Of a DNA stretch of 33,302 nucleotides, positions 1,375 through 21,002 are shown piece after piece. This stretch comes from an uncultured Gammaproteobacteria bacterium (GTDB lineage Bacteria > Patescibacteriota > Microgenomatia > Levybacterales > GWA1-39-11), in NCBI GenBank assembly GCA_964450885.1, contig CAYVFE010000002.1, positions 81,192 to 114,493 on the forward strand. The letters run 5' to 3'. Numbering within the stretch: position 1 is the first letter of the stretch; every line of letters starts with the position of its first letter. The notes under the pieces are model-generated. The model worked only from the letters and a program-made list of their open reading frames with translations, searched no databases and was not told the origin of the DNA. Position numbers and translations under genes: made by a program.

Positions 1375-1887
1375 ATGAAATTAACATACGGAGAAAAAGC
1401 GCCAGAACTCGTTAATGTACTTATCGAGGTACCGATGGATAGCAAGGTAAAATACGAATTTGACAAAGAGACGGAAATGATAACCGTGGACAGGTTTTTA
1501 TTCTTTGATAAGGGTTATCCTGCAAATTATGGATTTATCCCAAATACGCTTTCCGGGGATGGTGATCCCGTTGATGTCTTGGTGCTGTCACCAGAAGTAC
1601 TCGCCCCTGGAGTTGTCATCTGCGCAAAACCTATCGGGATGCTTGAGACCGAAGACGAGAGCGGAGAAGACGCAAAAATTGTTGCGGTCCCTACAGAAAA
1701 AGCAAATCCGGAATTTGGCAAATATAACGACATCTCAGAGTTACCAGAGGAGATTACAGAGAAAATCAAATACTTTTTCGAAAACTACAAGAAAAATGAA
1801 CCTGGGAAATGGGTGAAAGTGAAAGACTGGAAAGGACGCGATGTCGCTATTTCTGAGATCAAAAGCGGAATGGACAACGCAAAGTAG
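1375..1887 (+). CDS. ppa: Family I soluble inorganic pyrophosphatase
   Basis: KYEFDK, YPANYGFIPNTLSGDGDPVDVLVL, DESGEDAKIVAVP, FFENYK motifs; GAGGAGGT RBS about 12 nt upstream. Confidence 0.97.
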   Translation: MKLTYGEKAPELVNVLIEVPMDSKVKYEFDKETEMITVDRFLFFDKGYPANYGFIPNTLSGDGDPVDVLVLSPEVLAPGVVICAKPIGMLETEDESGEDAKIVAVPTEKANPEFGKYNDISELPEEITEKIKYFFENYKKNEPGKWVKVKDWKGRDVAISEIKSGMDNAK

Positions 1888-4659: not shown

Positions 4660-5493
4660 ATGGAAATAAATGGCAAAAAACTTCAAGAGGATTTAGTCAG
4701 GAAGCTCAGCAGTGAAGTAAAAAGGCTTAAGGAAAAGGGTATTGATCCTTGCATTGCAATCGTCACTCTAGGCCCCGAAAAAAGCTGGGAAGCTTATGTC
4801 AAACAAAAGCTAAAGCTCGCTGAAAAACTCCACATCAAAGCAAGATTCATCAACTTAAGGCCTAAAACGACGGAGGAAGTTATCGAAATTGTCGAGAGTT
4901 TGAATAGAGATGAATCAGTGCACGGACTTATAGTTCAGAGACCTTTTCCGAATGAGATTGATACAGAAAGAGTTATTCAAAGTGTATCAAAAGATAAAGA
5001 TATCGATGGGTTTAGAAAGGATTCACAATTCGGTGTTCCAGCCTGGCTTGCTGTAAGATATATTCTCAGTCATATCGCCTCACTGCTAAATTTTTCCGAC
5101 CTACGATCCTTCCTGTCAGATAAGGCTATTCTCGTAATTGGAAAGGGTGGAACAGCAGGTCAGCCGACCATAGAGGGCCTCAAAGATCTAGGTTTTGAAC
5201 CGCAGGTAATAGATAGTAAAACTGTAGACAAGAAGCAGTTAATACGCGAAGCGGACATAATAATTTCTGCAGTCGGAAAGAAAAAAATAATTTCTGCAGA
5301 AAGTATAAAAGAGAAAAGTATCCTTATAGGAGTAGGGATCCATGGAGAAGATGGAAAGCTATTTGGTGACTTTGATGTAGAAGACATACAAAAGAAAGTG
5401 GCATTTTTTACTCCTACGCCGGGTGGGGTAGGACCGGTCAACCTGGCTTTTCTTTTTATGAATCTATTACAGGCTGTTAAAAATTCAGAATAG
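4660..5493 (+). CDS. folD: Bifunctional methylenetetrahydrofolate dehydrogenase/cyclohydrolase
   Basis: YVKQK (YxxxK), VHGLIVQRP, KDIDG, GDFD, TPTPGGVGP motifs. Confidence 0.92.
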   Translation: MEINGKKLQEDLVRKLSSEVKRLKEKGIDPCIAIVTLGPEKSWEAYVKQKLKLAEKLHIKARFINLRPKTTEEVIEIVESLNRDESVHGLIVQRPFPNEIDTERVIQSVSKDKDIDGFRKDSQFGVPAWLAVRYILSHIASLLNFSDLRSFLSDKAILVIGKGGTAGQPTIEGLKDLGFEPQVIDSKTVDKKQLIREADIIISAVGKKKIISAESIKEKSILIGVGIHGEDGKLFGDFDVEDIQKKVAFFTPTPGGVGPVNLAFLFMNLLQAVKNSE

Positions 5494-5496
5494 AGT

Positions 5497-6462
5497 ATGA
5501 AACGATTTGATCTAAAAGAGGAACTTAAAAGTCGCATAAAAAAAAGCGGGGGATTTACTAATTCGCACGCTCATATAGATCGTGCCTATACAGTAAATAA
5601 GGATAATTTCAAACTAATAAATGCTCCTCTGGAGCAAAAGTGGAACCTAAATGACGAATACAAAAAGAGTGTTACCGTCGTTAACCTATATGACAGGATG
5701 GCACGCGCAATAGAGATCATGCTCGACCAGAACGTCACCGCTCTGGGAACATTCATAGATGTCGATCCTCAGATAAAAGATAAATCGATAATGGCAGCCG
5801 AAAAAATCCGTAAAAAATATTCCAGACAGATCGAGATTAAATTCATAAATCAATGCCACAAAGGAGTTCTGGAAAGAGAGGCAAGTAAATGGTTTGCCTA
5901 TGGGGCGGATTTCGTCGATATCATAGGTGGACTTCCCAGAGCCGATATAGGCCGCGAAAAAGAGCACGTGCAGACACTTTTGCATACGGGGAAAAAGCTC
6001 AACAAGATGGTACACGTCCATGTAGACCAGCTAAACTCAGCTAAAGAAAAGGAGACCGAGCTTTTGGCAAAGCTGACGATAAAAAACAATATGCAGGGTA
6101 GAGTAGTCGCAATACACGGAATATCGATCGCAGCACATAAGAAAACTTATAGAAAAAAACTGTACTCGCTTATGAGGGAGGCAAAGCTTATGGCCATAGC
6201 TTGTCCGACGGCATGGATAGATAGCAGAAGAAGCGAGGAAATATCCCCTATCCATAATGCTCTAACTCCTGTCGATGAGATGATTGATGAAAAACTTACC
6301 GTAGCACTTGGGACAGATAATATAGCTGATATCTACAAACCTTTTTCTGATGGAGATATGTGGATAGAGCTTAGACTACTACTTGAGGGGTGCAGGATTT
6401 CGGATCTCGATAAATTGGTGAAGATAGCCAGTAAAAATGGGCGCAAGGTCCTGGGGCTATAG
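5497..6462 (+). CDS. Cytosine deaminase-like metal-dependent amidohydrolase
   Basis: HAHID metal motif, HVHVD, IHG and LGTDN in the order seen in CodA-type amidohydrolases; starts 3 nt after the folD stop. Substrate unknown. Confidence 0.85.
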   Translation: MKRFDLKEELKSRIKKSGGFTNSHAHIDRAYTVNKDNFKLINAPLEQKWNLNDEYKKSVTVVNLYDRMARAIEIMLDQNVTALGTFIDVDPQIKDKSIMAAEKIRKKYSRQIEIKFINQCHKGVLEREASKWFAYGADFVDIIGGLPRADIGREKEHVQTLLHTGKKLNKMVHVHVDQLNSAKEKETELLAKLTIKNNMQGRVVAIHGISIAAHKKTYRKKLYSLMREAKLMAIACPTAWIDSRRSEEISPIHNALTPVDEMIDEKLTVALGTDNIADIYKPFSDGDMWIELRLLLEGCRISDLDKLVKIASKNGRKVLGL

Positions 6463-6472
6463 TGGGCTATAG

Positions 6473-7288
6473 TCAAACGACTTCTTCTTCGAGGATTGCT
6501 GTTAGGCAGTGTGCGCCGCCGCCAGCCTTCATGAACTCCCTCAGATCGACTTCTATCGATCTATATCCAAGCGACTCCACTTTATCTTTAAAAGTAGGGA
6601 TGCCGCTTTGCATCACCACATGGTGATCGGTTGTTATGGAATTGGCAGCAAAATTCTCGACCTCAAAATCTTCAAAAGGGATAAGAAGCGGGATGTTAGC
6701 TTTCAATGCTTCCAGGGATTTTTTTGTAAAGGCTCTTGGATAGTAAAAAGCAATTCTGTCATTTAATGGGAAAAGTGCAGTATCTAGGTGAAAAAACCTC
6801 GGATCCTTTAGCGAGATAGGCACGACTTCTATCCCCAAAAATTTTTCGATAAATTTGCATGCGCGAATATTTGTCCTGAATCCTACACCTATAAAAATTT
6901 TATTATTGATAAACAAACTCTCACCGCTACCTTCAAATGTGATATCTTCCGGAAGAAAGAAAAATGTAAAATTTTTGTCTTCGAACCATTTTTTGTAAAA
7001 ATCGCGCTCTTTTTGTCTCTCCGGATATTTGAAATTACTGACAACGATCGAGTTATTGTAAAAAATGCCTTGATCTGTCGCAAAAACCATATCAGGAACA
7101 CCTTTAACTTGATCGATTATCTCGACCTCTATCGAGAGCCTTTTATAAACTTTTACAAGCTGGTTCCATTGAGAAAGTGCTTTTTGGCCATCAGCGGATC
7201 CTTTGACCATCCAAGGATTTATACTATAGTCGACGGAGAAGTATTTGGGCCGGCACATCAATACTTTTCTAACGATCTTTGTCTTCAT
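6473..7288 (-). CDS. Guanidino-group-modifying (amidinotransferase/DDAH/ArgZ-like) hydrolase
   Basis: VLMCRPKYFSVDYSINPWM, PDMVF, FEGSGE, FHLDT and GGGAHCLT give the Glu-His-Cys triad of the pentein fold; 4-bp ATGA overlap with the argG stop. Confidence 0.9.
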   Translation of the reverse strand: MKTKIVRKVLMCRPKYFSVDYSINPWMVKGSADGQKALSQWNQLVKVYKRLSIEVEIIDQVKGVPDMVFATDQGIFYNNSIVVSNFKYPERQKERDFYKKWFEDKNFTFFFLPEDITFEGSGESLFINNKIFIGVGFRTNIRACKFIEKFLGIEVVPISLKDPRFFHLDTALFPLNDRIAFYYPRAFTKKSLEALKANIPLLIPFEDFEVENFAANSITTDHHVVMQSGIPTFKDKVESLGYRSIEVDLREFMKAGGGAHCLTAILEEEVV

Positions 7289-8913
7289 TTACGATAGCCA
7301 AAATCGTCATAAAGCTTGTCGACGAATTGCTTTGCGACTCCCATAGTGGTTATGAGATGGGTGTTCGTCTTGATAGCAAAATCGCGGATGATATTTCTGT
7401 CTGTCTTTTCTTTTTCGTCTTCATCTTTCTTATTTTCGATACTGATTATAAAATCGAAGCGCTTTGAATCTAGCAAGTCCAGTAGGTTTGGTTTTTTGTG
7501 AGGTTGTGAGATCTTCTGAACCAGAATAGAAGGTATGCCATTTGATATCAGGAATTTGTGAGTCTTATACGTAGAGTAGAGCTTAAAACCGAGAGAATTC
7601 AACTTTTTAGCATATGACAGGAATTTTACTTTATTTGCTCTTTTTCCGATAGAAAGCAAAGCGGTTCTCTCGCTTCGCTGTGCAAGCCTCATCTGAAGAG
7701 TGTAGAGCTCTATAAATCCTGCCGAAGCATTCTGGTTAAAGGCATCTGACGACATGAACGTTGCCAGCTTTTCCTCAAAAATAGTATTTGGTGTCTGGAC
7801 TGCAACAGCCTCTGCCATACCTTTAAATAATCTTACCTTAACTGTACCCGTAACTTTCTGATTGATCTTATCGATAAAGGCATTTAGATCATCCATCAAA
7901 GGTTCGAGCCAAAAAGCACCATAGCAAAGATATGCCCATTTGGTGTCTACCTCTGATTTGAATTCGTTTTCCTGACGGGTACTAACATATTTCTCCAGGT
8001 TCTTATGGGCAGTTATTATTATCTCAGCAGCTGGTGCTTCATATATTCCGCGGACCTTTAATCCCACAACCCTGTCTTCTATGTGATGCGCTATTCCTAT
8101 TCCATGCTTTGCGCCTATTCTATTTAAAGTATCTATGATTTTTGCCAGCTTCATCGACTTCCCATTTACGCTTACAGGAATTCCTTTAACAAACTCAACC
8201 TCAACTATCTCAGCCTTATTCGGAGCTTTTTCGGGGAGAGTACAAACAAGCAGTATATTCTCGAGGGGTGGGACGAGAGCGGGATCCTCAACTTCGCCGC
8301 CTTCGGCCGTTACACCCCACATATTGTCATCATAAGAATAAAGTTTTTTTGCACTTTGTCTTACTTCGATTCCATGCTTTTTTGCATACTTAAGTTCTTC
8401 ATCGCGTCCCATCGCCCATTCGCGCACAGGTGCGATTATCTTTATGTCAGGATTTAGCGCAAGAGCAGTACCTTCGATCCTAACCTGATCATTTCCCTTA
8501 CCTGTACATCCATGAGCGATCGTGTCTGCGCCTTCTTCCATAGCGACACGAACTGCGATTTTTGCCAGAAGCGGACGGCCCAAAGGAGTGGACAAAAAAT
8601 ACCTTCCCTGATAAGAACCATTTGCCTTAATTCCTTTTGCGATATATTCCTCCGCGAATTCATCTTTCGCATCGACGACGACTGCTTTTATGGCTCCGAG
8701 CTTTAAAGCCTTTTTCTTTATTTGTTCGAGGTCATCGGTCTGCTGACCTATGTCTATCGTGAGTGCAATTATCTCTGCATCATATTCTTCTTTTATCCAC
8801 TTAAGCATTACTGATGTGTCCAATCCACCGGAGTAGAGAAGGACGACTTTCTTGATCTCGCCTTTCTTCCCTTCGTAGGAGGCTACTTTTACATATTTTC
8901 CGTTTTTTGCCAT
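7285..8913 (-). CDS. argG: Argininosuccinate synthase with C-terminal MGS-like (CarB-type) domain
   Basis: KVVLLYSGGLDTS, HGCTGKGNDQVR, YSYDDNMWG, GRG-equivalent GLKVRGIYEAP, FNQNASAGFI; extra ~127 aa from residue 416 resembles the MGS-like domain. Confidence 0.95.
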   Translation of the reverse strand: MAKNGKYVKVASYEGKKGEIKKVVLLYSGGLDTSVMLKWIKEEYDAEIIALTIDIGQQTDDLEQIKKKALKLGAIKAVVVDAKDEFAEEYIAKGIKANGSYQGRYFLSTPLGRPLLAKIAVRVAMEEGADTIAHGCTGKGNDQVRIEGTALALNPDIKIIAPVREWAMGRDEELKYAKKHGIEVRQSAKKLYSYDDNMWGVTAEGGEVEDPALVPPLENILLVCTLPEKAPNKAEIVEVEFVKGIPVSVNGKSMKLAKIIDTLNRIGAKHGIGIAHHIEDRVVGLKVRGIYEAPAAEIIITAHKNLEKYVSTRQENEFKSEVDTKWAYLCYGAFWLEPLMDDLNAFIDKINQKVTGTVKVRLFKGMAEAVAVQTPNTIFEEKLATFMSSDAFNQNASAGFIELYTLQMRLAQRSERTALLSIGKRANKVKFLSYAKKLNSLGFKLYSTYKTHKFLISNGIPSILVQKISQPHKKPNLLDLLDSKRFDFIISIENKKDEDEKEKTDRNIIRDFAIKTNTHLITTMGVAKQFVDKLYDDFGYRK

Positions 8914-9063
8914 ATGTAATTAAAAACTTATATTATGAAGACAAAAAATATACTAATATTCTTGCCTTTAACCATACAATAGTTAATTTCGTATATTTTG
9001 TCAATATACAAAATCATACTTTTGACAAAACTTTTAAAAACATATAAAGTAGTTTTTGTAGGA

Positions 9064-9852
9064 ATGTTCAAGAAAGATAAAAGAATCCGCATTCTTTCTT
9101 TTGCCCCGAGAAGAACTAAAAGGTCAAATTTTTTCAAATTAAGCCTTTTTGCTTTTGCATATCTCTCGCTTATCGGAAGTCTGTGCGCTCTATATATGCT
9201 TACGATCCCTGAGGGGAATGCCCAACTGGAAAAAAGGACGCTGGGTGAAAAGACGGAAAATGTAAAAAGGGCAAATATCGGGTACCTGGAGATTTCTCCT
9301 TCGCCTACACTGGTAGCTTCGGTAACACCTACTCAAGCTCCAGAACCAACACCTGTTCCACCCACAGCTACGCCAACTACTCAGGCTCAAATCGACAATA
9401 GCACGCAATATACTGCCGAGAAAATCGGAGAAAACACTTTCAGGGTGACAGGGGTAACGCTTGATAACAGCATGGCAAGCACCTCAGATATATTAGATGC
9501 CCTTAATTCGTATAGGCAGGGAAGAGGAGTTGGGACTCTTGCATGGGACAGTAACCTTGCGACCTTCGCACAGGATAGAGCCAACTTTTTTAGCTCAAAT
9601 AGTACACTGGACAACCACACGGGGTTCAAAAGCTTTATGGATAACAATGGGTTTGAGATATCCGGATTCAATGGTCTAGGAGAAAATTCAGCGCATCTTG
9701 CGGGCCCCATGAATGGCGACAGAATCATCAAGGAGATTTTTGGCGCCGATGCACCGCATGACAACAACCAGCTTGATTCTTCCTGGACTCATGCAGGCGT
9801 CGGGGTAAATGGTAACTACATCAACATCAACTTCGGAAGAAACAAAAGATAG
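9064..9852 (+). CDS. Membrane-anchored CAP (SCP/Tpx-1) domain protein
   Basis: Basic N-terminus plus one TM helix, Pro/Thr linker (PTQAPEPTPVPPTATPT), then LNSYRQGRG..LAWDSNL..AQDRA, GENSA, H..N.LD..W...GVG. Start moved from 8998 to the more plausible ATG at 9064. Confidence 0.85.
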   Translation: MFKKDKRIRILSFAPRRTKRSNFFKLSLFAFAYLSLIGSLCALYMLTIPEGNAQLEKRTLGEKTENVKRANIGYLEISPSPTLVASVTPTQAPEPTPVPPTATPTTQAQIDNSTQYTAEKIGENTFRVTGVTLDNSMASTSDILDALNSYRQGRGVGTLAWDSNLATFAQDRANFFSSNSTLDNHTGFKSFMDNNGFEISGFNGLGENSAHLAGPMNGDRIIKEIFGADAPHDNNQLDSSWTHAGVGVNGNYININFGRNKR

Positions 9853-10798: not shown

Positions 10799-10808
10799 AG
10801 AGCAGAGT

Positions 10809-10831
10809 AGTATTATTGTGCGACATAATTA
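10809..10831. repeat. 23-bp exact direct repeat (copy 1; spacer plus right arm of the palindromic site)
   Basis: AGTATTATTGTGCGACATAATTA is identical at 10809-10831 and 11503-11525. Confidence 0.95.
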
Positions 10832-10860
10832 GTATGCACATCTTTGTACCAAAATGTCAA
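10831..10860 (-). promoter_or_regulatory. Putative sigma70 promoter of the xer gene
   Basis: Minus strand TTGACA (10860-10855), 18 nt, CATACT (10836-10831), about 32 nt upstream of the ATG. Confidence 0.6.
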
Positions 10861-10949
10861 CGGCGTGCAGAAATAAGCCTAAGTGGTTTTTGCGATTAAC
10901 AGCAGTTAAGTTGTAAAAGGCACAAAACATATATAGGAAAACCTTCTAG

Positions 10950-10963
10950 ATTGTGCGACATAA
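10950..10963. repeat. Isolated half-site (14 bp)
   Basis: ATTGTGCGACATAA matches the arm in the other two copies. Confidence 0.85.
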
Positions 10964-10988
10964 ATATTCACGGTGATATAATTACTTT

Positions 10989-11201
10989 ATGAGTCCTGAA
11001 TTACATCCTGTCGTTATGATCAAATCCGCTTGGAAATACCTTTCAAATCGCGATCAAAAACTTATGAGGTTCTATAATTCCAATTTCGTCAACAGTCCCA
11101 TAAGTGATTCGCAGATAGATACCGATTTGCTTATTAAAGACGACGCCGTAACACAAGATATTGAAAGAAATACCCAAAATCCTGATAACACATCCCAGTA
11201 A
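10989..11201 (+). CDS. Possible small hypothetical protein (70 aa)
   Basis: ORF only; no RBS or motif; lies between the repeat copies. Confidence 0.3.
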   Translation: MSPELHPVVMIKSAWKYLSNRDQKLMRFYNSNFVNSPISDSQIDTDLLIKDDAVTQDIERNTQNPDNTSQ

Positions 11202-11490
11202 TATTTGAGCTCATATACAACGCACGAGGATGCGATTTAAGGCCCCTGAAATAATTTAAAGCACTACATACACCTATTAAATAAAGTCTTATATTCCCCA
11301 AAACTTAAACTACGTTCATTTGAATTCATATTTATCCTATAGTAGGGTAGTGTCCTTATAATTACATCCTTTGAACAAAGAGAATATTGCAAGCGATCAA
11401 CTAGCGGAAAGGTAAAGCTAAATCAATAAACATTAAAAAGGAAATTTTGCGTATTTGAGTAAATATAGCCACACTCTCGGCATGTCAGGT

Positions 11491-11522
11491 TTATGTCGTA
11501 AAAGTATTATTGTGCGACATAA
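11491..11522. other. Candidate tyrosine-recombinase crossover (dif-like) site, 13-6-13
   Basis: TTATGTCGTAAAA-GTATTA-TTGTGCGACATAA; arms are 11/13 inverted-identical with a 6-bp spacer, 0.7 kb from the xer gene. Confidence 0.65.
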
Positions 11523-12196
11523 TTATATACCACCCCCCCCAGCCTAGGGCAGGACGAATATATGTCATCTTCCACCTCTTGGTTATATTGCAAGAAAAAT
11601 TAAAAACTTTAGATGGCTTATTTGATCTCAATTAGCACTTCTCTCGTAAAAGAGTCAGGACTCTTAAATGCGGTATTTAGTGCTATTTAGCTTATGAATA
11701 CGGTAAAAACGTCAATTTTAGCCTCAAAACGAGGCTTATTTATCAACGTCCTTACGCTCTTTTGGAGCGGTTTAGAGCCTAAAATCAACAAAAACAATAG
11801 TTTTAGCTTCAAATGTTCGAGATTTGTTCGCTTTTTTTTCATTTTCAGGTCTATACTTGGAACTACAAGCAAGGCTATATCACCCTTAATCCAAGGTAGT
11901 GCTTAACTTTAATTATCTTAAGAAACCATTTGCATTCTACCAGATAAACCATATCAGCCTCTACCGTTAGAGGGCGAGATATCCGTGAAAAGACAGTACT
12001 TAACCTCGTGAAACTATAAGTCCCTTTTTACCTAGACGATCTGACTTAAATGACTTAAAATAATTATTATAGGATATAATTATAGGATGTTAAAATGCAT
12101 GTATCAAACTATATCATTTGAATCTAATTATTGCACTCTTCTACTCCGTCTTCCTGCCATCAAAAAATTATAATGAGAATAAAATTAGATTAAAAG

Positions 12197-15543: not shown

Positions 15544-16299
15544 CTAGTCTTCCGCTTTTTCTAGAATCTTTAGGAACCCGGAAAGATCATCGGTCAATTT
15601 TGAAATTATATGCATTGTCTCGTGGCTCTCCGGATGCAAAAAGGTAATTTCTTTTGCGTGTAGAAAATGCCTTCCCAGTCTCTTTCTATCTCTACTCGAA
15701 ACTTTCCGTCCTGCATAAAGAGCATCCGAATAAATCGGAAAGCCTGCATATTGTAGATGAACTCTTATCTGATGAGTCCTCCCCGTCTTTGGAAATGCTT
15801 TTACCAAAGACAGCTTTGACTTCGGATCATCTGGATCTATATACAGTTTTTCCAACTTAAAATCTGTTACCGCGCTTCTCCCATCGGGAACTATTCCAAA
15901 GCGCATCCTATTCCAGGGAAGTCTTCCTACCGGAGCAGTAATATTTGCTCTCTCTGGAAACTGCCCATGCACAAGCGCAACGTATACTTTCTCAACTTCT
16001 CGTTCCTTGAATTGTTTTTGTAAACTGACAAAGACCTTTTCGTTCTTTGCGACCAGAAGAACTCCTGAGGTCTCCTTATCAAGCCTATGTACCATCCCGT
16101 CACGGAGAAAAAAATCTGAAGCATCGTCGGACTTGTCTTTTTTAATAGATAGGTTTTCCTTCACCCAATCCTGCAGTGTATACTCATGTCGGGAAGTGTC
16201 AGCGTTATTTACTATCATCCCATATGGCTTTATTACTGCTGCCATATCATCATCTTCATACGCGATTTGCACCTCTGAGCTTTTGTTAATATCAATCAT
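15544..16299 (-). CDS. RluA-family pseudouridine synthase
   Basis: KPYGMIV, VHRLDKETSGVLL (catalytic Asp), KTGRTHQIRVH, LHA motifs. Confidence 0.95.
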   Translation of the reverse strand: MIDINKSSEVQIAYEDDDMAAVIKPYGMIVNNADTSRHEYTLQDWVKENLSIKKDKSDDASDFFLRDGMVHRLDKETSGVLLVAKNEKVFVSLQKQFKEREVEKVYVALVHGQFPERANITAPVGRLPWNRMRFGIVPDGRSAVTDFKLEKLYIDPDDPKSKLSLVKAFPKTGRTHQIRVHLQYAGFPIYSDALYAGRKVSSRDRKRLGRHFLHAKEITFLHPESHETMHIISKLTDDLSGFLKILEKAED

Positions 16300-16955
16300 T
16301 TTTCGTGGAAAAAGTTAATTCGGATAAGCACAAGACAATAGGCAGAAATCGCGATATCGACTAAGGCAACTATCTGTATAGGAGAATACAACGCAATACC
16401 CTTCTCGCGCACAAAACTATATCCCAAATAAGAAATAGCTGAGAGAATAAGGATCGTGAAAGACACTATCCCGTCTTTTATTTTATATCCACTATGCATT
16501 TTTATAAGTATTGGAAACAGCAATAGGGACAAGACCAAATATCCTACAGCAATCCGAAAATCAAAACTACCTGATACGAGATGGTAGATTGCTACAAATA
16601 TCGTCAACGGATAAAAAGATATCATATATATATCCAGTATCCTAAATAAATTTTTTCTCTTTCGGTAAAGAAGGACTACCCCCAGCGCAACTGTGATAAA
16701 AAACCCTAAGAGTAAAAATCCATAGTACAAAATCACATGCAAAAAGCTTAGAGGGTCTAGGAAAAATTCGTACAGCCTCTCATCGATTAAATAAAATATC
16801 CTGGCCACAAGTAGTGCAAAGAAAGTGATTATAAAAGCCTTATCGAAAATCAGTCTTATAGAGATATTCTGTCTGATAAGCACAAAATCATGCCTGGATG
16901 CTACGAATAACACAAACGAACAGATGAATAAAAATAGTAGCAAAAGTAAAAACAT
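16296..16955 (-). CDS. Membrane protein, possibly Lgt (prolipoprotein diacylglyceryl transferase)-like
   Basis: Multiple TM helices; ARIFY and YGFL/LD positions loosely match Lgt GARxxY, GGL and D; short and divergent. Confidence 0.55.
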   Translation of the reverse strand: MFLLLLLFLFICSFVLFVASRHDFVLIRQNISIRLIFDKAFIITFFALLVARIFYLIDERLYEFFLDPLSFLHVILYYGFLLLGFFITVALGVVLLYRKRKNLFRILDIYMISFYPLTIFVAIYHLVSGSFDFRIAVGYLVLSLLLFPILIKMHSGYKIKDGIVSFTILILSAISYLGYSFVREKGIALYSPIQIVALVDIAISAYCLVLIRINFFHEK

Positions 16956-20072: not shown

Positions 20073-21002
20073 CTATCTATAAAATCCTCTCACGTCTTCG
20101 GGTAAAAGTTCGGCAACTTTCCTCATCATAAAATCATTGACCGAGTTAAAGTCTGATATATCTATATCGTTACTAACAACATCCTCGATTTGAAAAACTT
20201 TTCCTATGTTTACGTAAGCAAGAGTTGATGGACGAAGCCCTATTTTTGATTTAACAAACTGAAACTTAGTCCTTACTGTCGGATCCGTTTTTCTGGGCTC
20301 AATTATCCTGTTTGCGTCAACAATGCCTGCGGGTAGAAATGCTATATTCCTTCCTGCCCTAACCGCTCCCCCGATTAGATCCGAAAACATCTTATTGTCT
20401 ACTTCCTGCAGCCCTTTCCTGCTGCCATCCTCACCTTTCATTCCACCCTCTGTGGTAGCTTCTGGAAAGAACATAAATCCTGCGTCACTTTGAAGAGTAT
20501 CCATTATCCTCTGCTGGCTTTGTCTAGTCTCTGATATCAACCTCCGTGCCGATTCAACATCTTTTTCACTGCGGTATTTCTTTAGGTCTTTAGACCTCGC
20601 AAGCGGGATGAAATGTACGTCCTCACTCTCCAGAACTGGTTTAAGCGAGTTAGTAAAATCAGCAAGACTTTTACCCTGGTCTCCTTGATCCAGCGAGTAA
20701 GCTGTCGCAACATACAAATCATCCGGTCTTATGGGAAGACGATTATAAATACCTCTAAATGCTGCGATATTAACGTGCTGGGTATGATTTGAATATATAA
20801 CGGGATAATCTCCCTCTAAAATTCTTTCAGAAAGAATGTTCAAAGAATCATATGGATCTCTAAATTCATGAAGTCGCTCTGCAAAATCAATTTGCTCTTT
20901 AGCTTTCTGTACTATTCCATCAAACACTATATTTTCATGTATATGCATTCCCCTCTCAGCAGTCATACGGTGTAATTTATAGGGAATTGTTGAAAAAGTC
21001 AA
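20073..21002 (-). CDS. Putative PlsC-like (lysophospholipid acyltransferase family) protein
   Basis: VIYSNHTQHVN (block I-like), MFFPEAT (block III-like), IAFLPAGI (block IV-like); start may be the ATG at 20966. Confidence 0.6.
   Translation of the reverse strand: MTFSTIPYKLHRMTAERGMHIHENIVFDGIVQKAKEQIDFAERLHEFRDPYDSLNILSERILEGDYPVIYSNHTQHVNIAAFRGIYNRLPIRPDDLYVATAYSLDQGDQGKSLADFTNSLKPVLESEDVHFIPLARSKDLKKYRSEKDVESARRLISETRQSQQRIMDTLQSDAGFMFFPEATTEGGMKGEDGSRKGLQEVDNKMFSDLIGGAVRAGRNIAFLPAGIVDANRIIEPRKTDPTVRTKFQFVKSKIGLRPSTLAYVNIGKVFQIEDVVSNDIDISDFNSVNDFMMRKVAELLPEDVRGFYR

Follow-up and report, generated by a model that had tools for sequence, protein, structure and literature searches.

The first three steps of pyrimidine biosynthesis, which have to bring together aspartate and a carbamoyl unit to give dihydroorotate, are treated as universal, and the Patescibacteria are usually called nucleotide auxotrophs. 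The nearest described concept in which arginine or citrulline serves as the carbamoyl source for pyrimidines comes from Thermococcus kodakarensis, which has no carbamoyl-phosphate synthetase and obtains the carbamoyl phosphate for pyrimidines from an arginine synthetase pathway (PMC13260591). In that organism, however, carbamoyl phosphate (ArcE, ArcB) remains an intermediate and is handed on to normal PyrB and PyrC, and neither ArgG nor argininosuccinate is involved (PMC13260591). Here we describe three adjacent genes in a patescibacterial contig (CAYVFE010000002.1, positions 81,192 to 114,493; this entire stretch of 33,302 nucleotides is referred to below as the window) that encode an argininosuccinate synthase fused to a CarB-type allosteric domain (ArgG-MGS), a guanidino-group-modifying hydrolase with a distinctive aspartate (the Asp72 hydrolase), and an amidohydrolase of the PRK06886 family (AH). 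Comparison with related loci leads us to suggest, with a probability that we would put at about 45%, that this module supplies dihydroorotate to PyrD, PyrE and PyrF by a path that requires no carbamoyl phosphate, no aspartate carbamoyltransferase and no dihydroorotase. Literature searches found nothing on a route from argininosuccinate to pyrimidines, and no description of the ArgG-MGS fusion or of the function of the PRK06886 family; a preprint on Saccharimonadia reports that argG and argH are enriched and that nucleotide pathways are near-complete, without linking the two.

By its substrate motifs and its equivalog score alike, the ArgG core is orthodox. It passes the NCBIfam test for argininosuccinate synthase (NF001770, 519 bits against a cutoff of 334, with TIGR00032 also matching at 468 bits), Pfam finds the N- and C-terminal Arginosuc_synth domains along with MGS, and the core is ~55% identical to the Thermus thermophilus ArgG structure 1j1z (E 6e-105), in the alignment to which the ATP motif SGGLDTS, the aspartate/citrulline motif TGKGNDQVR and the downstream citrulline-binding motifs are all kept. 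The use of urea in place of citrulline by ArgG-MGS was considered and ruled out, given that the citrulline-binding motifs are intact. The protein is overlong by ~130 amino acids because of its C-terminal MGS domain, which in the PDB is best matched by human CPS1 (allosteric domain, 2yvq, E 1e-7); identity to the C-termini of patescibacterial CarB proteins amounts to 30-36%, and these are, in sequence terms, its nearest kin. In Escherichia coli CarB, the residues K954, T974, T977 and K993 are reported to bind the phosphate of inosine or uridine monophosphate (IMP, UMP) (CarB-IMP structure, Thoden et al. 1999). Their counterparts in the alignment, K428, T448, T451 and K467 of ArgG, are kept in 64-67 of 67 ArgG-MGS fusions, and with the Pfam match and these predicted phosphate-site residues the domain is classified as CarB-type. 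Such a domain fits a role of ArgG as a committed, feedback-regulated step. A search of a representative library for the MGS domain merged the fusions into few clusters, and little was gained from it.

The same CarB-type domain, with its phosphate-site residues conserved, is also fused to a ligase resembling asparagine synthetase A and AsnRS (L141:13194-14684 on the plus strand, L121:3295-4785 and L091:2017-3504), the gene for which is located near AH, PyrE, ArgH and plain ArgG. An unfused form of 362 amino acids (L008:12949-14037, L090:1648-2736) sits between AH and a PyrD-like gene in two loci. This ligase may provide another entry point, likewise by activating aspartate, and be controlled in the same way as ArgG-MGS.

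What links these genes to pyrimidine synthesis is the organization of related loci, which were collected in two samples: 79 loci with the Asp72 hydrolase from a scan of species-representative genomes, and 80 metagenome loci seeded on AH. The first sample comes nearly entirely from Patescibacteria (Levyibacteriota, Woesebacteria, Shapirobacteria and Saccharibacteria). Several metagenome-assembled genomes (MAGs) titled 'uncultured Gammaproteobacteria' or 'Pseudomonadales' (L003, L004, L005, L009, L013, L015, L020, L023 and others) have the gene order of Levyibacteriota and Saccharibacteria and an ArgG that is 70-81% identical, so that these titles look like taxonomic mislabels. The first-pass annotation of this DNA had treated argG and the hydrolase as a translationally coupled pair on account of a 4-bp ATGA overlap. 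The overlap is indeed read directly from the sequence, the hydrolase ATG (7288-7286) and the argG TGA (7287-7285) sharing four bases (plus strand cttCATTtac at 7283-7292), and the pairing recurs across genomes, with ArgG-MGS immediately upstream and on the same strand in 45 of the 79 loci and a gap that has a median of ~5 bp and is mostly <=20 bp in 42 related loci; among the loci compared, the exact ATGA overlap is found in the window only. What that annotation missed is the MGS domain of ArgG, the constant partnership with AH and the tight operons with pyrD, pyrE and pyrF in relatives. AH adjoins the hydrolase in 39 of the 79 loci, being co-oriented and downstream in Saccharibacteria and convergent in the relatives of the window (in the window itself, 10 bp separate the two stop codons), and its distance from ArgG-MGS is <=4 kb in 37 of 43 fusions; contig ends cut off several of the remainder. 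Within the hydrolase-seeded loci, ArgG-MGS loci account for 30 of 31 occurrences of PyrD-like genes, 26 of 27 of PyrF and 24 of 26 of PyrE; PRPP synthetase, PurA, PurL, FolD and pyrophosphatase are other recurrent neighbors. The PyrD-like proteins are divergent and preserve the class-1 catalytic motif NLSCPN. The loci most closely related to the window are L004 and L014, with an ArgG that is 80-81% identical; here AH and the PyrD-like protein form a single polypeptide of 715-737 amino acids, and ArgG-MGS, hydrolase, AH-PyrD, PyrF and PyrE form an operon in which stops and starts overlap.

The AH-seeded sample provides a complementary picture. Its commonest informative layout is ArgG-MGS>AH>PyrD>PyrE>PyrF without the hydrolase, with all five genes present in 12 loci and partial sets in others. 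Co-location with pyrD, pyrE and pyrF is seen in ~30 related loci and in the 12 full five-gene operons. The ArgG of these operons is 78% identical to that of the window, the operonic PyrD of L098 is a class-1A dihydroorotate oxidase at the equivalog level, and a Pacebacteria contig carries ArgG-MGS>AH>PyrD with gaps of 2-3 bp. The hydrolase is found in just 4 of the 27 ArgG-MGS loci of this sample. Because the five-gene operons mostly do without the hydrolase, which is present in so few of these loci, and because stand-alone copies of it are basal (see below), the core of the module is taken to be ArgG-MGS plus AH.

Further evidence comes from the position of the module in the chromosome. Two patescibacterial contigs with the flanks of the window, L166 and L167, were found via close PyrB homologues; GyrB, inorganic pyrophosphatase and GyrA are 53-75% identical between these contigs and the window, FolD 37-39%, and the XerC-like recombinase 63%. 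Proceeding from folD to the far flank, L166 contains a pyridoxal-phosphate (PLP) enzyme, arginase, pyrB, carA, carB, pyrC, pyrD, pyrF and pyrE; L167 contains pyrB, carA, carB, an MFS gene and a CAP-domain gene; and the window contains AH, the hydrolase, ArgG-MGS and a CAP-domain gene. The corresponding interval of L004 and L014 is occupied by ArgG-MGS, hydrolase, AH-PyrD, pyrF and pyrE, and in L005 and L015 the module and the canonical set stand side by side. As judged by gene order and sequence, this is a non-orthologous displacement in place, in which ArgG-MGS (with or without the hydrolase) and AH occupy the slot of carAB, pyrB and pyrC upstream of the same pyrD, pyrF and pyrE. The module enzymes belong to families unrelated to those of CarAB, PyrB and PyrC, namely, N-type ATP pyrophosphatases and deaminase-fold amidohydrolases; what the two sets have in common, besides the slot (L166), is the aspartate input, the ATP cost and an ATP-using enzyme (CarB and ArgG-MGS, respectively) that carries an allosteric domain from one and the same family. 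Canonical PyrB is common in Levyibacteriota-like genomes (at least 120 homologues, those listed being at least 72% identical). That a route via argininosuccinate displaced carAB, pyrB and pyrC in situ in many Patescibacteria, with the CarB allosteric domain transplanted onto ArgG so that feedback would be kept, is a scenario to which we would give somewhat less than even odds. Recent horizontal transfer of the module was considered and ruled out, its GC content matching that of the flanks. The PLP-dependent enzyme and the arginase-family gene of L166 lie just upstream of pyrB-carAB (L166:7835-9908), so arginine metabolism is tied to this slot in a canonical relative too.

So how could such a module produce dihydroorotate? 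ArgG links the ureido carbon of citrulline to the nitrogen of aspartate, and only two things then separate argininosuccinate from dihydroorotate: the ring is still open, and the future C2 bears ornithine instead of oxygen. Argininosuccinate cyclizes spontaneously to six-membered anhydrides, as is known from the clinical chemistry of argininosuccinic aciduria, and creatinine and cytosine deaminases as well as AtzC swap an exocyclic amine for oxygen on cyclic, acyl-guanidine-like rings. The combination of this anhydride chemistry with the fold of amine-displacing deaminases in AH is the reason for proposing that AH converts argininosuccinate into dihydroorotate and ornithine. In the scheme that we infer, the Asp72 hydrolase would convert L-arginine to citrulline and ammonia in a single round of hydrolysis; ArgG-MGS would then condense citrulline with aspartate at the expense of ATP to give argininosuccinate, with UMP, IMP or another phosphorylated effector exerting feedback control through the CarB-derived domain; and AH would hydrolytically displace ornithine from the guanidino carbon and close the ring. 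The form of the substrate taken by AH would probably be the six-membered cyclic anhydride of argininosuccinate, with a chemistry like that of creatinine deaminase or AtzC. On balance, the guanidino carbon of arginine and one nitrogen would become C2 and N3 of the pyrimidine, at a cost of two phosphoanhydride bonds (ATP to AMP and pyrophosphate (PPi) at ArgG), the same as for carbamoyl-phosphate synthetase. Unlike the canonical route, this one would not involve carbamoyl phosphate, the carbamoyl equivalent coming from citrulline or arginine via argininosuccinate. In all 12 of the 12 loci in which a pyrophosphatase was seen, it lies near the module, and by removing PPi it could draw the ArgG reaction forward; alternatively, this may be just conserved housekeeping synteny.

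AH reaches the equivalog score of PRK06886 (447.5 bits against 340), an otherwise uncharacterized family for which the homologue search returned >2000 sequences (289 for the hydrolase). Its PDB matches are the cytosine deaminase CodA (E 4e-14) and the N-isopropylammelide isopropylaminohydrolase AtzC (E 2.5e-10), and the predicted structure (pLDDT 91) shares the TIM-barrel fold with both, at Foldseek TMq values of 0.84-0.85 (cytosine deaminases) and 0.80-0.82 (AtzC). CodA and AtzC replace an amine by oxygen on an amidine or guanidine ring carbon, which is the chemistry that AH would need, and AH keeps the metal ligands (HxH, His and Asp). It differs from CodA in being a bare TIM barrel without the N-terminal beta-sandwich and in falling under all cytosine-deaminase cutoffs (at best, 83.9 bits against 438), with the catalytic Glu of the HxxE motif replaced. 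No dihydroorotase appears among the top 50 Foldseek matches of AH, and the Pfam and NCBIfam scans gave no match to a dihydroorotase family. This lowers the likelihood that AH is a PyrC, not that it makes dihydroorotate. The candidate function of an arginine deiminase analogue was rejected for AH: the Glu of deaminases is missing, and the step from argininosuccinate to PyrD would be left without an enzyme.

We now turn to the hydrolase. The arginine dihydrolase ArgZ acts on the guanidino group and then on the ureido group, and its Asn71 is reported, in work on AgrE and ArgZ, to be essential for the second hydrolysis. The closest solved relative of the window hydrolase is the cyanobacterial ArgZ Sll1336 (6jv0 and 6juy, E 6e-58), with AgrE (Alr4995; 6lrf) also close; these share with it the pentein fold, ~40% identity, the catalytic Cys, His and Glu, and D66, R91 and R138, which hold the amino-acid end of arginine. 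The ArgZ-like motifs on which the first-pass annotation relied are all present in the Sll1336 alignment, and its placement of Asp72 (a GAT codon) opposite ArgZ Asn71, the residue changed to Ser in PDB 6juz, is equally correct: the window protein has PDMVFATDQG where ArgZ has PDMVFTANAG. In 120 of 120 homologues listed (43-56% identity), which were retrieved without any motif, the sequence is FA[TA]DQG and thus includes Asp72, and in 119 of these 120 GGGxHC (GGGAHC in the window) replaces the GGAAKC of ArgZ. The 79 genomic loci add nothing on this point because the search pattern required the Asp. From the alignment, the likely catalytic residues are Cys261 (6506-6508) and His167 (6788-6790), with Asp72 and Asp169 (6782-6784) holding the guanidinium; D66, D72, E119, H167, D169 and C261 are invariant among the 120 homologues, and C261, the H167/D169 HxD motif, the acidic E119 and D72, all characteristic of penteins, align with ArgZ. 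The broad Pfam model DDAH_eukar passes (57.8 bits against 23) and the ADI model matches too, and the best-scoring named family is the Rv2323c-type dimethylargininase NF045659, at 249 bits under a cutoff of 300; the dimethylargininase models NF045658 (67.7 against 450) and NF045660 (66.1 against 340) and the arginine dihydrolase models NF052232 (229.5 against 450) and NF052231 (229.4 against 1025) are all missed. By these scores the hydrolase, a single-domain protein without the C-terminal ornithine cyclodeaminase-like part of ArgZ and AgrE, is a new subfamily inside a known superfamily.

What reaction, then, would this enzyme catalyze? In one alignment, the guanidinium-holding pair is D/D in the window hydrolase and in an ADI-like protein, N/D in ArgZ and N/N in the citrulline hydrolase CtlX (NF046062), a distant member of the superfamily (~311 amino acids) with DAVFPNNW and HTN motifs and the ureido group as its substrate. 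This series fits an enzyme that performs one guanidino hydrolysis and ends at citrulline, and the hydrolase is expected to stop there. Furthermore, citrulline would be common to the hydrolase, ArgG and CtlX; hence the role of the hydrolase is most likely the conversion of arginine to citrulline, so that the module starts from the more available amino acid, and to feed citrulline to ArgG is the best-supported role. This part of the first-pass interpretation stands, whereas its two-gene mini-pathway does not accommodate the MGS domain, the near-constant AH, the operons with pyrD, pyrE and pyrF, or the pyrB-carAB-pyrC slot. A full dihydrolase like ArgZ that, notwithstanding Asp72, would yield ornithine, CO2 and two ammonia and, together with ArgG and with OTC and ArgH encoded elsewhere, would sustain an ornithine-ammonia-type cycle seems to us very improbable. 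ArgZ and AgrE are, to be sure, the closest solved relatives, and the context of Rv2323c in Mycobacterium tuberculosis implies ornithine formation from arginine (PMC4569260), but the hydrolase keeps both acidic guanidinium-binding residues, scores far under the Arg_dihydro cutoff and would make the separate CtlX beside the pair in five loci redundant. A true dimethylarginine dimethylaminohydrolase that scavenges methylarginines from a host, the salvage role entertained in the first-pass annotation, is less probable still: the DDAH_eukar match and the 'dimethylargininase' names of NCBIfam would suggest it, but the protein falls under every dimethylargininase equivalog cutoff, bacteria, as its likely hosts, would offer little free methylarginine, and the M. 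tuberculosis homologue is genetically tied to the use of arginine, not methylarginine. Indeed, M. tuberculosis requires Rv2323c for growth on arginine and for the release of arginine nitrogen (PMC4569260), although the genomic partners of Rv2323c are rocD and rocE rather than argG.

CtlX (348 bits; cutoff 334) is encoded beside argG-MGS and divergently from it, at ~7200-8200, in L002, L003, L006, L007 and L023. Going by the predicted activities, this makes citrulline a branch point between the formation of ornithine and of argininosuccinate.

The phylogeny of the hydrolase bears on the order of the reactions. In a neighbor-joining tree rooted on ArgZ, stand-alone copies are basal and the ArgG-linked copies form a derived group, and no active-site residue tells the two apart, the groups being separated by three non-catalytic positions only. 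By this evidence the hydrolase is a later add-on without a sign of altered substrate. The main rival to the scheme outlined above retains the pyrimidine module and reverses the order: the hydrolase Cys would attack the guanidino carbon of argininosuccinate and expel ornithine, water would free N-carbamoyl-aspartate, and AH would be an unusual dihydroorotase. Reactions that expel ornithine are well established among members of this superfamily, as in amidinotransferases; the succession ArgG>hydrolase>AH is maintained, the genes overlapping or being separated by very few bases; and the location of AH beside carAB (L147) and with pyrB (L005 and L015) would suit a plain dihydroorotase. We nevertheless consider this order unlikely given that the hydrolase is absent from most ArgG-MGS>AH>pyrDEF operons, that the ArgG-linked copies show no active-site change to fit the extra succinate, and that the modeled fold of AH is that of a deaminase rather than of a dihydroorotase.

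Several observations weigh against the proposal that ArgG-MGS and AH make dihydroorotate from argininosuccinate. The residue that corresponds to the catalytic Glu217 of cytosine deaminase is Gln178 in AH and is invariant in 27 AH homologues. AH also occurs outside the module, beside argH in Bacteroidota-like contigs, together with CtlX and an ADI-like gene, and by itself in what are probably Gammaproteobacteria. Both samples of loci were seeded on members of the module, which biases the co-occurrence figures. Moreover, L005 and L015 carry pyrB, carAB and a short pyrC in addition to the module, and L147 has AH beside carAB, so the module is not strictly a replacement. AH may also accept carbamoyl-aspartate, or the adjacency may in part have been left over from an ancestral cluster that combined arg and pyr genes. 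Finally, pyrD, pyrE and pyrF are found neither in the 33-kb window, nor in the 8.5 kb further downstream in another assembly, nor in L164. For the window genome the pyrimidine endpoint is therefore only a prediction; by analogy with L167, its pyrD, pyrE and pyrF may be located elsewhere. Searches of the window with queries from relatives (tblastn) gave no OTC, PyrB, CarA, CarB, PyrC, ArgH, PyrD, PyrE, PyrF, CtlX or arginase, the lone exception being the CarB C-terminus query, which matches argG in its 3' portion. When 24 open reading frames (ORFs) of the window, including all those above 260 amino acids, were scanned with Pfam, there was likewise no argH, argF, carA, carB core, pyrB or pyrC, in agreement with the first-pass annotation, which had reported argH, argF and carAB to be missing; apart from the module, the ORFs identified by Pfam are housekeeping genes.

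The absence of pyr genes from the window could also be taken to favor a citrulline-centered salvage, in which arginine or methylarginines would be converted to citrulline and argininosuccinate, and then to arginine by an ArgH encoded elsewhere, or exported, with AH and the pyr genes being neighbors by descent only. D72 and D169, which favor a citrulline-forming hydrolase, would suit such a pathway as well, ArgH is present in five of the loci with the module and OTC in three, and L005 resembles a combined arg/pyr cluster. However, a loop from arginine through citrulline back to arginine wastes ATP, and salvage does not account for the presence of a CarB-type domain in ArgG, for the nearly constant company of AH and its fusion to PyrD, for the operons of five genes or for the in-situ swap with pyrB-carAB-pyrC, so that we regard it as distinctly improbable. 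The export of argininosuccinate to a host, suggested in the first-pass annotation, finds no support, the gene set of the relatives being operonic with pyrD, pyrE and pyrF.

The contexts of AH outside the module deserve separate mention. Outside Patescibacteria, AH directly adjoins an argininosuccinate-lyase-like gene in L080 (8414-10960; a Sphingobacteriales MAG), L085, L086, L089, L097, L103, L105 and L129. This arrangement fits argininosuccinate as the predicted substrate of AH; its purpose is puzzling where a normal pyrimidine pathway exists. In L120, L124, L128 (9980-13420), L130, L137, L148 and L159, AH occurs with an ADI-like pentein of 304 amino acids and a CtlX-like hydrolase, without argG; this cluster could be a catabolic set for arginine and citrulline or else a set for dihydroorotate and carbamoyl-aspartate. 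We know of no gene for ureidosuccinase. The patescibacterial PyrC proteins are themselves short (L005:18134-19186 and L166:15441-16487; 348-350 amino acids, 255 bits against a cutoff of 279), with the N-terminal part of the model missing, and may be a reduced or non-catalytic form.

The coordinates of the module and of the features next to it are collected in the table. Divergent from argG, at 8998-9852 on the plus strand, the window encodes a CAP/SCP-domain protein that is probably secreted and has a Pro/Thr-rich linker, and L167 has a CAP-domain gene at the equivalent position. Between the genes for the XerC-like recombinase and a DUF5656 membrane protein lies a 1.4-kb region (10799-12196; GC ~0.35) without an ORF above 70 amino acids and without an Rfam or tRNA match. 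Two minus-strand ORFs, of 309 (20073-21002) and 219 (16296-16955) amino acids, have no Pfam match. No RNA runs contain the window region, the sources being DNA only, from landfill, bioreactor, soil and sludge.

Table. Module genes, their domains and motifs, and adjacent features of the window (positions within the 33,302-nucleotide stretch; aa, amino acids)
Feature	Position	Strand	Basis
Inorganic pyrophosphatase	1375..1887	+	Pfam PF00719, 184 bits
folD, 4 bp upstream of AH; synteny anchor gyrB-ppa-gyrA-folD	4660..5493	+	Pfam
AH, PRK06886 amidohydrolase, cytosine-deaminase/AtzC fold	5497..6462	+	NF005365, 447.5 bits (cutoff 340)
HVHVDQLN motif of AH, with metal-ligand His175 and Gln178	6013..6036	+	Alignment to 1k6w; translation checked
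Guanidino-group-modifying (pentein) hydrolase, ArgZ/Rv2323c-like, single domain	6473..7288	-	271 aa; NCBIfam, PDB, homologue alignment
Codon of Asp72 (GAT), aligned with ArgZ Asn71	7073..7075	-	Alignment
ATGA stop/start overlap of argG and hydrolase	7285..7288	-	Read from sequence
argG-MGS: argininosuccinate synthase (aa 1-415) and CarB-type allosteric MGS-like domain (aa 431-522)	7285..8913	-	542 aa; NCBIfam, Pfam and PDB matches
MGS-like allosteric domain of ArgG	7348..7623	-	Pfam PF02142, 44.5 bits (cutoff 24.1)
Promoter-like site TTGACA-17-TATTGT, 5' of argG	8976..9004	-	Consensus scan only, weak evidence

If the proposed route from argininosuccinate to dihydroorotate is valid, it would represent a second start of pyrimidine synthesis, with arginine or citrulline as the carbamoyl donor, and hence new core metabolism. 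The scoring of 'incomplete' nucleotide pathways in the genomes of Patescibacteria would change, a reason would be found for the retention of argG in episymbionts that are auxotrophic for amino acids, and a large orphan amidohydrolase family of >2000 sequences would gain a function. In evolutionary terms, ArgG-MGS would be a natural case of an allosteric domain passing from the enzyme of a committed step to its functional replacement. For the pentein superfamily, the D/D, N/D and N/N series offers a simple sequence rule to recognize members of the deiminase, dihydrolase and ureidase types.

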